From: an uncultured Candidatus Poseidoniales archaeon
GTDB taxonomy: Archaea > Thermoplasmatota > Poseidoniia > Poseidoniales > Thalassarchaeaceae
Reading direction: 5' to 3'
Length of the DNA stretch: 30,069 nucleotides
NCBI GenBank assembly: GCA_964645485.1
Contig: CAZXZO010000006.1
Location: 75,333 to 105,401, forward strand
In this document: in pieces, positions 14,113 through 23,708 of the stretch
How the letters are laid out: each line of letters opens with the position of its first letter
Numbering within the stretch: position 1 is the first letter of the stretch
The notes under the pieces: generated by a model
Database searches by the model: none
Told to the model about the DNA's origin: nothing
What the model saw: only the letters and a program-made list of their open reading frames with translations
Translations under genes and position numbers: made by a program

Positions 14113-15654
14113 ATGGCTAAAATGTGGGCGATGTTTTTTCTTAGCATTCTGCTAGTCAGCGTAATGAATTTCTATGCGGTTGTTAGGGAACCAGATATTG
14201 TAGAAATTGCTGAATTGCATGAACACATCCGAGAATCGGTAAAAATTCGAGGTGAATTGACTTCATATGTTCGCGACCCGTATGATAGTGGTTCAGATCG
14301 AATCGACATCTTAGTTGAAGATGGATACAATGTTAGCGAAGTCAGATGGACTGAAACAGGGCTTCTACCGCCTATTGGCACTTTAGTCCAAGTAGTCGGT
14401 GAAGTTTCAGAATGGAATGGTAGAATATGGGTTGCTGCCAAAGGTGCTGGCGCTATCCAATGGGATAAATCATGGGTTCCAACCGTCCACAGCGTCAATC
14501 TGACTGGTGTGTCTCACGACCCAACAAAATTTGATGGAGACTTAATCACAATTGTTGGTTATTCGGGTGATGTCTTAGAAGGAAATGTAACTCGCCAAAT
14601 TTCTAGTTTGATGGACCACCCATCTTATGGGAATGCAGACCATGTAATTTCAGTCGCGATTGAAGGACGCCTTGACCAAAGTTATGAGGCAGGCTCAAAA
14701 ATAATCGTAACTGGATGGGTACGATGGTCAGAGCGAGATTTCCGTTGGCAACTTCAAACCCATGCAACTCAAATTGAGGTCTTACACGCTGCAGGCGCAA
14801 AGCGACTTTCATGGAGTGCAGATTCAACAACTTGGTCATATGATATTGGCAGCCTTGTAACAATTGAAGGAGAGGCGTACAACGATAGTGGAGTATGGTG
14901 GATTAAGGGACCGGGAGAAACCAACAAACTTTGTTTATTACCACATGAAAATGACACCTCAGGAGAGATTAGTGACTTTAGTGGTCGATTAGTCTGGGAA
15001 GAATCGAGAATCCAATTATGCCTAGACCACGGCCAAGTCACAAATGCCATCAATCCAACAGGTGATTTTGGAGGCCCAAATACTCAACTTTCAACTCTTG
15101 TAAGAGACCCGAATGCTTACAGAAATCAAACCCTGAATCTAATCGGCTGGATTGATGGTTCAATCTCACCAGATTATGACAAAGGTTACTTGGCTGATGG
15201 TCCAGATTATTTCACTCGTTCAACCAAGATGAGAATTATAATTGAAGGAGTGAGGTCTGAGTGGATTGAAACAGGAACAAAAGTCAATGTCTCAGCCACT
15301 TTAATCTGGGATTCAGTAGATGCTAGATTGCTCCTGCAAGTACACAGTATTTCCATTTGGCAAAACGAACCAATCCCAGTAACTACACTTGCTTGGACAG
15401 ATGGTTTTGACCAGTGGCAGTGGGATATCAATACCCTCGTCAAAATAAACGGAGTCGTGACAGAAGAAAATGGCACACTCTGGATTAACCGTGAGGGAAC
15501 ACAAGTTGGAGAACGGCTGTGCCTCCTTGGTGATGGAACAGAATTATCCACACAAGAAGCGAGTGGGACTACTCCTCTCTTTTGGGATGGTAGATTATCG
15601 ACTGAAGAAAGCGTTATTGAACGTGATGTACAACTTTGTCTTGACCGACGTTGA
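14113..15654 (+). CDS. Exported or N-terminally anchored protein with multiple OB-fold-like domains
   Basis: N-terminal hydrophobic helix, then VKIRGELT...ILVEDG...IGTLVQVVGEVSEWNGRIWV (OB-fold pattern), then two tandem repeats of about 170-180 aa, each ending QLCLD. Confidence 0.6.
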   Translation: MAKMWAMFFLSILLVSVMNFYAVVREPDIVEIAELHEHIRESVKIRGELTSYVRDPYDSGSDRIDILVEDGYNVSEVRWTETGLLPPIGTLVQVVGEVSEWNGRIWVAAKGAGAIQWDKSWVPTVHSVNLTGVSHDPTKFDGDLITIVGYSGDVLEGNVTRQISSLMDHPSYGNADHVISVAIEGRLDQSYEAGSKIIVTGWVRWSERDFRWQLQTHATQIEVLHAAGAKRLSWSADSTTWSYDIGSLVTIEGEAYNDSGVWWIKGPGETNKLCLLPHENDTSGEISDFSGRLVWEESRIQLCLDHGQVTNAINPTGDFGGPNTQLSTLVRDPNAYRNQTLNLIGWIDGSISPDYDKGYLADGPDYFTRSTKMRIIIEGVRSEWIETGTKVNVSATLIWDSVDARLLLQVHSISIWQNEPIPVTTLAWTDGFDQWQWDINTLVKINGVVTEENGTLWINREGTQVGERLCLLGDGTELSTQEASGTTPLFWDGRLSTEESVIERDVQLCLDRR

Positions 15655-15672
15655 GTTACTTGAGGTGATTGA

Positions 15673-22400: not shown

Positions 22401-22433
22401 GCTAACCAAAAACCGAGTTCTCGGAGGTAGGAT

Positions 22434-23708
22434 ATGACATCTGAAATTCAGCAAGCTGTTGATGGCATTGTTGACGGTAGTCTGAGCGACAAACAGGTTG
22501 AAGATTGGCTGAGAAATGTTTTTGAAAATGGACTGAGCGATTCTCAAACCGTTGAATTAACCCATGCCATGGTGCACTCAGGAACTGTCCTTGATTGGCC
22601 AGGAGAATGGTCTCATTTGGTCGTAGATAAACACAGTACAGGTGGAGTTGGTGACAAGGTTTCACTTTCCCTTGCTCCAGCAGTAGCGGCTTGTGGAGGT
22701 AAGGTTCCAATGATTTCTGGAAGAGGATTGGGCCACACCGGAGGCACTCTTGACAAATTAGAATCAATGCCTGGATACATAGTATCTCGTAGCAATGATG
22801 AATTACGCTCTCAAATTGAAAAAGTTGGATGTGCCATTGTTGGACAAACTAGCGATATTGCTCCCGCGGATAAGCGAATGTATGCTATTAGAGATGTCAC
22901 GGGGTTAATCGCTTCTGTTCCGCTTGTAACCGGCTCCATTCTATCGAAAAAAGCAGCCGCCGGCCTTTCAGCGTTAGTAATGGACATTAAAGTCGGCAAA
23001 GCGGCTTTCATGCAAAATGACGCAGATGCCCGAGAATTAGCCGCCTGTATGACATCAACTGGTGAAGGTTTAGGGATGAACACAACAGTCACCCTCACCG
23101 AGATGAATTCACCTATTGGCTTTGCAATTGGAAACTCATTGGAAGTCTTAGAGTCAATAGAGACATTGAGAGGAAATGGCCCTGCTGACCTTGAAGAATT
23201 GGTATGCGTTCAAGGGGGAATAATGTTGACCGCCGCTGGAATATCAAATGACCGCGATGAAGGTGCACATATGATTCACGATTCGTTACACGACGGTTCA
23301 GCAATGAAGAAATTTATTGAAATGTGTGTAAATCAAGGAGTTAATGAGAAAATTTTTGCCAGTGAAAACTCCCTTCTAGAATCTCTTGGCCTACTAAATA
23401 CGACCCTAAAGACAACTGAGGTATGCGCAATTGACCGAGGCCATGTTTGCGATATAGATGCTCTAACTCTAGCCAAAATAAGTTCAGACTTGGGAGCGGG
23501 TAGGAAACATATTGATGACCAACTTGACATGCAAGTTGGGATGGTAATTGACACCCATATTGGCTCACCCGTAGAATCTGGTGAACCATTAGTAACAATC
23601 TATCATCGCGACGATTTAACCGATGAGCAGTTGGCAAAGTTACGTGACGCTTTCACAATATCAAAAGACATTATTCAGCCAACAAGTAGAATAATTGACA
23701 TTTTGTGA
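22434..23708 (+). CDS. pdp: Pyrimidine-nucleoside (thymidine) phosphorylase, bacterial DeoA/Pdp type
   Basis: VDKHSTGGVGDK, KVPMISGRGLGHTGGTLDKLES, IAPADKRMYAIRDVT, SILSKKAA and C-terminal LGAGR; lacks the extra N-terminal domain of archaeal AMP phosphorylase; GGAGGT RBS. Confidence 0.9.
   Translation: MTSEIQQAVDGIVDGSLSDKQVEDWLRNVFENGLSDSQTVELTHAMVHSGTVLDWPGEWSHLVVDKHSTGGVGDKVSLSLAPAVAACGGKVPMISGRGLGHTGGTLDKLESMPGYIVSRSNDELRSQIEKVGCAIVGQTSDIAPADKRMYAIRDVTGLIASVPLVTGSILSKKAAAGLSALVMDIKVGKAAFMQNDADARELAACMTSTGEGLGMNTTVTLTEMNSPIGFAIGNSLEVLESIETLRGNGPADLEELVCVQGGIMLTAAGISNDRDEGAHMIHDSLHDGSAMKKFIEMCVNQGVNEKIFASENSLLESLGLLNTTLKTTEVCAIDRGHVCDIDALTLAKISSDLGAGRKHIDDQLDMQVGMVIDTHIGSPVESGEPLVTIYHRDDLTDEQLAKLRDAFTISKDIIQPTSRIIDIL

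Follow-up and report, generated by a model that had tools for sequence, protein, structure and literature searches.

A 30,069-nucleotide stretch of DNA from an uncultured Candidatus Poseidoniales archaeon (Marine Group II) of the family Thalassarchaeaceae (assembly GCA_964645485.1, contig CAZXZO010000006.1, positions 75,333 to 105,401; hereafter the window) carries a row of four genes. They encode a membrane-anchored protein with several oligonucleotide/oligosaccharide-binding (OB) folds, a TctA-like permease, a surface-tethered protein that combines lamin-tail domains (LTD) with a phospholipase D (PLD) module, and a pyrimidine-nucleoside phosphorylase (Pdp). All four open reading frames lie on the forward strand and are separated by 18, 80, and 33 bp. 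This layout and all domain assignments, as given in the original prediction, were confirmed by open reading frame coordinates, Pfam, NCBIfam, and motifs. The four genes, with positions numbered from the start of the window, are:

14113 to 15654, forward strand: gene 1, membrane-anchored multi-OB-fold protein, 513 amino acids (aa), assigned by AlphaFold2 (AF2) and Foldseek
15673 to 17409, forward strand: gene 2, TctA-like (PF01970/DUF112) permease, 578 aa, assigned by Pfam and hydropathy
17490 to 22400, forward strand: gene 3, predicted surface-tethered phosphodiesterase with six LTDs and a double HKD motif, 1636 aa, assigned by Pfam, motifs, and AF2
22434 to 23708, forward strand: gene 4, bacterial-type pyrimidine-nucleoside/thymidine phosphorylase, 424 aa, cytoplasmic, assigned by NCBIfam

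Of 41 relatives from three families, 40 carry all four genes with order and strand unchanged, and the neighborhood conservation that the original prediction had proposed to check across Poseidoniales was confirmed (relatives are referred to by the labels of the comparison, which are f1, f2, f3, f13, f16, and f36 for families, g8 for a genus, and L-numbers for loci). Since order and strand are kept in three Poseidoniales families at protein identities down to 33-45%, the arrangement, judged from sequence comparison, is not due to chance. The junction between the OB and TctA genes is uninterrupted throughout the Poseidoniales relatives compared, and the gap between the TctA and PLD genes is 4-16 nt in genus g8 of family f3. 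OB, TctA, PLD module, and Pdp were jointly absent from four Thalassarchaeaceae genomes belonging to three genera (87-94% complete). This co-loss fits a single dispensable unit, and one block deletion explains it equally.

The protein encoded by gene 1 has a single N-terminal hydrophobic helix (aa 6-24, nt 14128-14184). Its Pfam matches to OB families are sub-threshold only (PF01336, E 1.7e-3). The AF2 model, which used 13 homologues and reached a predicted local distance difference test score (pLDDT) of 81, consists of one N-terminal transmembrane (TM) helix and five beta-barrels. A Foldseek search against the Protein Data Bank (PDB) returned 180 matches at E<=1e-3, and the top matches were all tandem-OB nucleic-acid binders (HIN-200, RPA70, Teb1, POT1, TEBP, and SSB; E 1e-10 to 1e-5), with template-modeling scores (TM-scores) that are low because the domain arrangement differs. 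The barrels and the tandem-OB matches together uphold the earlier assignment of multiple OB folds. According to the model, the protein has a type-II anchor, and its five OB-fold barrels are extracellular. The OB fold is real and the family is large, and the modeled structure suggests that the protein may bind nucleic acid.

OB1 and OB2 form a conserved module, and the remaining three barrels are a Poseidoniales-specific expansion, with the full-length form confined to this order. Short homologues of about 212 aa (TM helix, OB1, and OB2) align to residues 1-235 of gene 1. When a profile of the module was searched, 2170 cluster representatives passed E<=1e-3, and 407 of them also passed E<=1e-10. 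A word-based profile search gave matches in Thermoplasmatota only, and an Atlas look-up returned almost exclusively Thermoplasmatota clusters, with one bacterial and no methanogen cluster. The homologues repeatedly match PF01336, DUF4131, and RPA3 weakly. Assignment of the OB protein to ComEC was considered and rejected; the short homologues match DUF4131, the OB domain of ComEC, sub-threshold only.

The product of gene 2 matches PF01970 (TctA) with an E-value of 1.3e-47. The match scores 162.8 bits (cut-off 28.9) and falls into two stretches, with an insertion between them. About 11 hydrophobic segments were found by a crude hydropathy count, compared to 12 TM helices in bacterial TctA (PMC10133366). 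The insertion of about 110 aa (aa ~310-430) is hydrophilic, acidic, and rich in Ala, Glu, and Pro. Its length varies widely among Poseidoniales, where the open reading frames span 500-724 aa. Homologues from f3 and f16 have a shorter insertion or none, and the 446-aa form found in f16 lacks it. TctA relatives were confirmed at 547 places in the species-representative genomes of the Genome Taxonomy Database, and the 80 of these 547 that were listed are all from marine archaeal metagenome-assembled genomes. PF01970 also matches in the control genome of Methanocaldococcus jannaschii. The host genome is 82% complete, and genome-wide absences given here and below apply to that part. Neither TctB (PF07331) nor TctC (PF03401) had a match in it, and the control genomes were matched. 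The absence of these partners from the window had been remarked upon and holds for the genome; it is, however, the norm for archaeal TctA-like proteins and not a peculiarity of this locus (PMC10133366).

The OB and TctA genes are also paired outside Poseidoniales. At eight of nine loci in f16 and f13, a 212-aa OB gene lies directly upstream of a 446-aa TctA gene, often overlapping it, and the pair sits among housekeeping genes, for example those for Cdc48 and PEP synthase. The ninth short-OB locus had no TctA match within the stretch read. In two of three more distant OB-family members that were checked, a TctA gene follows the OB gene. Four genomes from three genera of f36, a family labelled "same phylum" by the search tool and not placed in the class of the window, have a longer row of genes that abut or nearly so (L052 1829-9786, L071 4553-12323, L072 5632-13435, and L073 3773-11743). 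This row encodes two OB proteins (OBa, ~320 aa, and OBb, ~430 aa), TctA (447 aa, distantly similar to that of the window), a YdjM/DUF457 membrane hydrolase, and a PLD protein (~1030 aa) with a CarboxypepD_reg domain, and is without Pdp. The recurrence in f36 means that the OB-TctA-PLD association is ancient or has arisen twice. Linkage beyond the order, which the original prediction had proposed to check, was seen for OB-TctA in f16, f13, and f36 and for OB-TctA-PLD in f36; elsewhere PLD is unlinked, and Pdp is specific to the order.

By gene order, OB and TctA are an old and widespread adjacent pair in Thermoplasmatota. Complex prediction with TctA and OB residues 1-240 gave a score of 0.36, compared to 0.00 for the best of three controls, with at least 85% contact agreement between runs and a partner pLDDT of at least 71. 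Of 80 solved complexes, 58 reached the mark used, as did 2 of 110 mismatched pairs; 7 of the 80 solved complexes and both passing mismatches fall at scores <=0.60. The prediction lends weak support to a physical association of the two proteins. The OB-TctA pairing is the firmest part of the interpretation. Two further genes were observed beside such pairs. At L163 (3284-5843), a distant OB-TctA member, a gene for a 228-aa RadB/KaiC-like ATPase with weak RecA_N and Rad51 matches lies 30 nt 5' of the OB gene on the same strand. The Cdc48 gene adjoining an f16 pair (L044 3729-7349) has an intein with a LAGLIDADG domain.

A pair of this kind has been identified in Methanococcus maripaludis JJ. There, MMJJ_13020 (an OB-fold protein with a single TM helix) adjoins MMJJ_13030 (TctA-like, with 11 TM helices), and both were found in transposon screens (PMC10133366). 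In-frame deletion of either gene abolishes natural transformation, which is restored by complementation, and the TctA homologue of Methanoculleus thermophilus is likewise essential for transformation (PMC10133366). A secreted, membrane-anchored thermonuclease, MMJJ_16440, is also required for transformation in M. maripaludis (PMC10133366). Fonseca et al. 2023 suggest that the missing DNA transporter of archaea is the TctA-like protein (PMC10133366). DUF112 homologues, whose presence among methanogen transformation genes the original prediction had raised as a question, are indeed represented there by MMJJ_13030 and the M. thermophilus homologue. Its statement that no such system had been described was wrong for the OB/TctA core, which is of a known kind, identified genetically in 2023 (MMJJ_13020/13030; PMC10133366).

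The two systems share the co-directional adjacency of OB and then TctA (with an 18-bp gap here), a single-TM OB protein, a TctA protein with about 11 TM segments, the lack of TctB and TctC, and a membrane-tethered nuclease-type enzyme among the components. They differ in that the OB protein of the window has five barrels and is not the short form, and in that the nuclease candidate is of the HKD/PLD type with six LTDs and is encoded in the same locus, whereas MMJJ_16440 is of the staphylococcal nuclease (SNase) type. A pyrimidine-nucleoside phosphorylase follows in the window locus, and the host is uncultured. No paper among those searched describes a cluster of the pair with a six-LTD HKD enzyme and Pdp, and searches on LTD-PLD in Marine Group II, archaeal DUF112, and TctA-like DNA transporters returned nothing beyond Fonseca et al. 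2023.

Gene 3 encodes the LTD-PLD protein, the parts of which are:

17505 to 17561: signal/anchor
~17607 to 20369: LTD array
~20442 to 21569: PLD module
21999 to 22055: C-terminal TM segment (aa 1504-1522)

Pfam identified six LTD (PF00932) stretches (E 6e-75) and two PLDc_2 domains (E 2.6e-35), and the protein additionally contains four DxDxD Ca-type repeats and an acidic cytoplasmic tail. Both HKD motifs are intact, HSKVAVRD at aa 1096-1103 (nt 20775-20798) and HNKGVIVD at aa 1307-1314 (nt 21408-21431). They are followed downstream by GSGN and SSIN, respectively, and the H, K, D, and N residues are invariant in 24 homologues. The protein therefore has the two HxKxxxxD motifs with G/S-x-N that mark a pseudo-dimer of the PLD/HKD superfamily. 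When a profile of the PLD module, built from the 24 homologues, was searched against PDB sequences, the best match was the Nuc endonuclease (E 1.3e-21), followed by Serratia SpPLD (7e0m, E 2e-19), Zucchini/MitoPLD (E 1e-15), NucT (E 1.7e-12), the poxvirus nicking-joining enzyme (E 8e-9), and the PLD3/PLD4 exonucleases (E about 1e-6). PLD1/2, Streptomyces PLD, and PS synthase matched at an E-value of about 1e-3. NCBIfam matches to DrmC (E 1.3e-17, 64 bits against a cut-off of 133) and NucT (E 5e-10) were both below their cut-offs. The AF2 model of the module (pLDDT 83.8, pTM 0.86) matches PLD folds with E-values of 1e-21, and its best structural matches are PLD3 and PLD4 (TM-score 0.61-0.66). 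On balance, these profile and model comparisons favor a nucleic-acid phosphodiesterase, with a catalytic module that resembles the HKD nucleases most. No SNase-type thermonuclease was found in the host genome, which leaves the role of tethered nuclease open for LTD-PLD.

With the HKD nucleases (Nuc of pKM101, NucT of H. pylori, Zucchini/MitoPLD, and PLD3/PLD4), which are the best matches, the module shares the HxKxxxxD motifs and the compact fold. Nuc, NucT, and Zucchini are single-HKD proteins, and the solved structures of Nuc and NucT are homodimers. Gene 3, in contrast, encodes two HKD halves in one chain, as in PLD3/4, and unlike all of these nucleases adds six LTDs, Ca-type repeats, and a C-terminal membrane anchor.

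The product of gene 4 scores above the NCBIfam cut-offs for thymidine phosphorylase (NF004490, 454 bits against 269) and pyrimidine-nucleoside phosphorylase (TIGR02644, 445 against 409) and far below that for archaeal AMP phosphorylase. The Pfam domains Glycos_transf_3 and PYNP_C are above their cut-offs, and the N-terminal helical bundle Glycos_trans_3N scores 23.6 bits, below its cut-off of 26. By these matches, gene 4 is a pyrimidine-nucleoside phosphorylase of the DeoA/Pdp type. Bacterial-type Pdp is present in 43 of 47 Poseidoniales genomes and in none of 203 others in the phylum sample, and it is always downstream of the LTD-PLD gene. A DeoC-family aldolase is encoded elsewhere in the host genome, and no UshA-type 5'-nucleotidase was found there. 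A further gene, possibly for nucleotide processing, lies on the opposite strand of the window:

7207 to 8469, reverse strand: HD + HD_assoc_2 phosphohydrolase, distantly dGTPase/SAMHD1-like, assigned by Pfam and weak NCBIfam dGTPase matches

This phosphohydrolase may be an associated gene of the system, although its membership is uncertain. Pdp, and perhaps the HD enzyme too, point to catabolic use. In f2 and f3, the HD gene adjoins the OB gene divergently. In the family of the window, w08, an S8 protease gene, w10, and w11 lie between them. This four-gene block (8547-14014), seen in Thalassarchaeaceae only, encodes a 283-aa basic protein, a 679-aa S8 subtilase, and proteins of 403 and 448 aa, and its three non-protease genes had no Pfam or NCBIfam match. 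In another euryarchaeal lineage, an HD/HD_assoc_2 gene (L045 6509-7783 and L046 6646-7908) lies directly 5' of a gene for an LTD-PLD protein of 711-723 aa.

The 80-bp gap ahead of gene 3 contains one further element:

17416 to 17432, no strand: perfect 17-bp palindrome CTCGCCCTAAGGGCGAG, identified from the sequence

The palindrome lies 6 nt past the TctA stop and 58 nt ahead of the LTD-PLD start, and is followed by a GCAAATTCTAATG box. It belongs to a family of 17-bp palindromes, CTCGCCCTAAGGGCGAG, CTCACCCTATGGGTGAG, and CTCGCCCTTAGGGCGA, at 17416-17432, 11419-11435, and 29922-29938, each just upstream of a gene for a large secreted protein (LTD-PLD, the S8 protease, and a PPC/TSP3 giant). 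In same-genus relatives L024 and L023, the palindrome and the GCTAATG-type box occupy the same place; equivalent copies of the palindrome were observed in same-genus relatives at L024 10370 and 16379, L023 16635, and L004 3398. The palindrome may act as an operator, be part of an internal promoter region, or form a hairpin in RNA, and the family may be the operator or 5' hairpin of a surface-protein regulon. The conserved palindrome and GCTAATG-type box suggest that the LTD-PLD and pdp half of the locus is under its own regulated internal promoter in this genus. Shine-Dalgarno-like boxes precede tctA (GAGGTGA, 5 nt 5' of the ATG) and pdp (GGAGGT, 6 nt 5' of the ATG), while the OB gene has none and has a TATA-like cctataa about 21 nt upstream, which fits an operon starting at the OB gene.

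Several other systems combine similar parts. Xds of V. cholerae is a surface-associated nuclease with LTD, OB, and endonuclease/exonuclease/phosphatase (EEP) domains, and its OB domain is needed for activity (PMC6746945). Xds/ExeM and the window locus both have an LTD, an OB fold, and a phosphodiesterase module at the cell surface, with extracellular DNA as the substrate in Xds/ExeM and the predicted one in the window, and both are cell-associated. In Xds/ExeM, however, a single polypeptide contains all of these modules, with one LTD and catalysis by an EEP domain, whereas the window has a separate OB protein paired with a permease, an HKD catalytic domain, and six LTDs. ComEC/ComEA follows the same logic of an OB-fold DNA holder, a polytopic channel, and a nuclease that processes incoming DNA, roles that are only proposed here. 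In this case, the channel candidate belongs to the family of tripartite tricarboxylate transporters (TTT), the parts are separate proteins, and there is no homology to the competence or metallo-beta-lactamase (MBL) domains; none of the four proteins had a Pfam match to the ComEC Competence (PF03772) or MBL domains. TctABC shares the large membrane subunit PF01970 but differs in its partners, since TctB and TctC were not found in the host genome and the permease is paired with an OB-fold anchor, and the likely substrate of the window system is not a tricarboxylate.

Taken together, gene order, structural models, and analogy to M. maripaludis give about an even chance that the OB anchor, the TctA-like permease, and LTD-PLD act jointly on extracellular nucleic acid, with OB-TctA as the import part. 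The locus would then encode a machinery at the cell surface for the capture, cutting, and import of nucleic acid from outside the cell. DNA, probably as single strands or ends, would be held at the membrane by the OB array and passed to the TctA-like protein, which would be the import channel or part of it. LTD-PLD would serve as a tethered nuclease that cuts dissolved DNA or RNA to importable pieces or degrades one strand. Imported DNA would be recombined or broken down; in the latter case, Pdp would cleave thymidine or deoxyuridine to the base and deoxyribose-1-phosphate, and the syntenic HD phosphohydrolase may also be involved. The purpose served may be transformation, nutrition, or both. 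The more specific proposal, that Marine Group II imports environmental DNA independently of ComEC through an expanded OB anchor leading to a TctA-like channel with a tethered six-LTD HKD nuclease, is tentative, and we would not yet call it probable. The capture, import, and salvage scheme originally put forward gains from the OB-TctA pair and the nuclease-like PLD module and loses from the loose link to Pdp and from the inserted genes.

A number of observations weigh against joint action on nucleic acid. The synteny itself is not exclusive to the four genes. In f3 (probably Poseidoniaceae), genes for a BaxI-like protein and a 2-oxoglutarate (2OG)-Fe(II) oxygenase lie between PLD and pdp, the oxygenase gene alone is inserted in one genus of f1, and a thiolase gene lies between tctA and PLD in f2. 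The collinearity also covers the unrelated flanking genes w04 and w05 and the HD phosphohydrolase gene, so conservation inside the order is weak functional evidence alone. Pdp is the weakest link of the locus, being specific to the order and loosely linked. Matches to the PLD module occur in 205 of the 251 genomes compared within the phylum, and outside Poseidoniales and f36 they are unlinked to OB-TctA. Of 20 PLD loci of the phylum from about 17 further families, none had an OB, TctA, HD, or Pdp gene nearby, except that f36 has OB and TctA. Likewise, the neighborhoods of the LTD-PLD homologues of Argoarchaeum and Methanocorpusculum held no OB, TctA, HD, or Pdp genes. Instead, a rhomboid protease gene lies directly 3' of the PLD gene, often overlapping it, at eight loci in five families (L051, L053-L057, L060, and L061), with a presenilin-type signal-peptide peptidase gene next on the opposite strand in six of the eight. 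The rhomboid protease may cleave the C-terminal anchor of the PLD protein, and its presence suggests a general envelope context for LTD-PLD. The palindrome and box similarly suggest that LTD-PLD is regulated with other secreted proteins and not with OB-TctA.

The biochemical assignments are subject to the same caution. Lipid PLD1/2 come close behind in the fold search with the PLD module, with slightly weaker E-values, and SpPLD, the second-best sequence match, is annotated as a phospholipase. The claim of a nuclease-like PLD therefore stands in that the module is nearer to the HKD nucleases in profile and structure, and is qualified by SpPLD at 2e-19 and by PLD1/2. Nuclease-like loops in SpPLD were noted by the authors of its structure, who raise the question of whether the enzyme is a nuclease (PMC8004604). 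In gene 3, the HKD motifs are followed by GS and SS, which is near the GS-GS pattern of nucleases (PMC8004604). The PLD module (net charge -32, pI 4.3) and the OB array (-33) are strongly acidic, which nucleic-acid binders usually are not; acidity is, however, a feature of the whole proteome. Characterized TTT transporters all carry small organic anions (PMC10133366), and the phenotype in Methanococcus falls short of proof that DNA passes through TctA-like proteins. The likeness to the MMJJ genes is one of family, topology, order, and adjacency, and rests on their published description.

These points give room to other explanations. Part of them would be met if OB-TctA were the sole functional unit and LTD-PLD and Pdp its neighbors by descent, which we consider unlikely. 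LTD-PLD would then be a common surface or envelope enzyme, whose substrates may be lipid head groups or other phosphodiesters of the envelope and which a rhomboid protease may process, and Pdp a horizontally acquired salvage gene that landed nearby by chance. The mostly unlinked PLD modules of the phylum, the rhomboid neighbors, the thiolase, BaxI, and 2OG-oxygenase genes inside the block, the collinearity of w04, w05, and HD, the palindrome and promoter-like box common to LTD-PLD, the protease gene, and the adhesin-like gene, the restriction of Pdp to Poseidoniales, and the close match to the named phospholipase SpPLD are all in keeping with this. It accounts poorly, however, for the independent abutting OB-OB-TctA-YdjM-PLD cluster in f36, the 4-16 nt between TctA and PLD in g8, the dominance of nuclease-type HKD proteins among the sequence matches together with the nuclease-like loops noted in SpPLD, and the joint loss of the four genes in three genera, though one block deletion could explain the last.

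Small-molecule scavenging, which we regard as quite unlikely, would instead keep the genes together with a different cargo. The TctA-like protein would import small anions, with the OB protein as an anchored substrate-binding or accessory subunit replacing TctC/TctB, and LTD-PLD would be a general surface phosphodiesterase that acts on dissolved organic phosphorus, for example DNA, RNA, phospholipid head groups, or glycerophosphodiesters, and sets free mononucleotides or phosphomonoesters, with Pdp and the HD enzyme finishing the catabolism. The clear PF01970 membership and the organic-anion cargo of characterized members (PMC10133366) are consistent with this, as are the syntenic Pdp and HD phosphohydrolase and the DeoC-family aldolase in the genome. 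PLD3/4, the best structural matches, are single-strand exonucleases according to their entry titles, and since no UshA-type 5'-nucleotidase was found, nucleotides would need to be imported intact. However, nucleotides and phosphoesters are not known as cargo of any TTT member, polynucleotide binders head the fold matches of the OB array, and the sole genetic data on an archaeal OB/TctA-like pair concern DNA uptake (PMC10133366). Surface defense against phage or foreign DNA, with a DrmC-like tethered HKD nuclease destroying DNA and the OB array as decoy or sensor, is very improbable. The best NCBIfam match of the PLD module is to DrmC of DISARM, and the syntenic HD protein is weakly similar to anti-phage dGTPases, but both matches are far below the curated cut-offs; this explanation was given low weight because DrmC reaches 64 bits against 133 and the catalytic domain is predicted to be extracellular. 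There are no other defense genes in the block, and the locus is stable, core, and syntenic in Poseidoniales and not a variable island.

To our knowledge, archaea lack ComEC, and the OB/TctA-like pair of M. maripaludis is the sole genetic lead on how they import DNA. In the window, a pair of this type shares a conserved gene row with a nucleoside-catabolic enzyme and a candidate tethered nuclease, and the locus yields candidate transporter partners and natural sequence variants for structural work. If the rival explanations hold, it still defines the long-missing partner subunit of archaeal TctA-like permeases. If the OB anchor, permease, and LTD-PLD do import nucleic acid, the locus, together with its f36 variant, in which a YdjM-type membrane hydrolase is encoded, would list the parts of an archaeal DNA transporter in compact form. 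The locus suggests that, in the surface ocean, Marine Group II may contribute to gene flow and help to turn over dissolved DNA, and these archaea, which count among the most abundant archaea of the plankton, would then be naturally competent, major consumers of dissolved DNA, or both.

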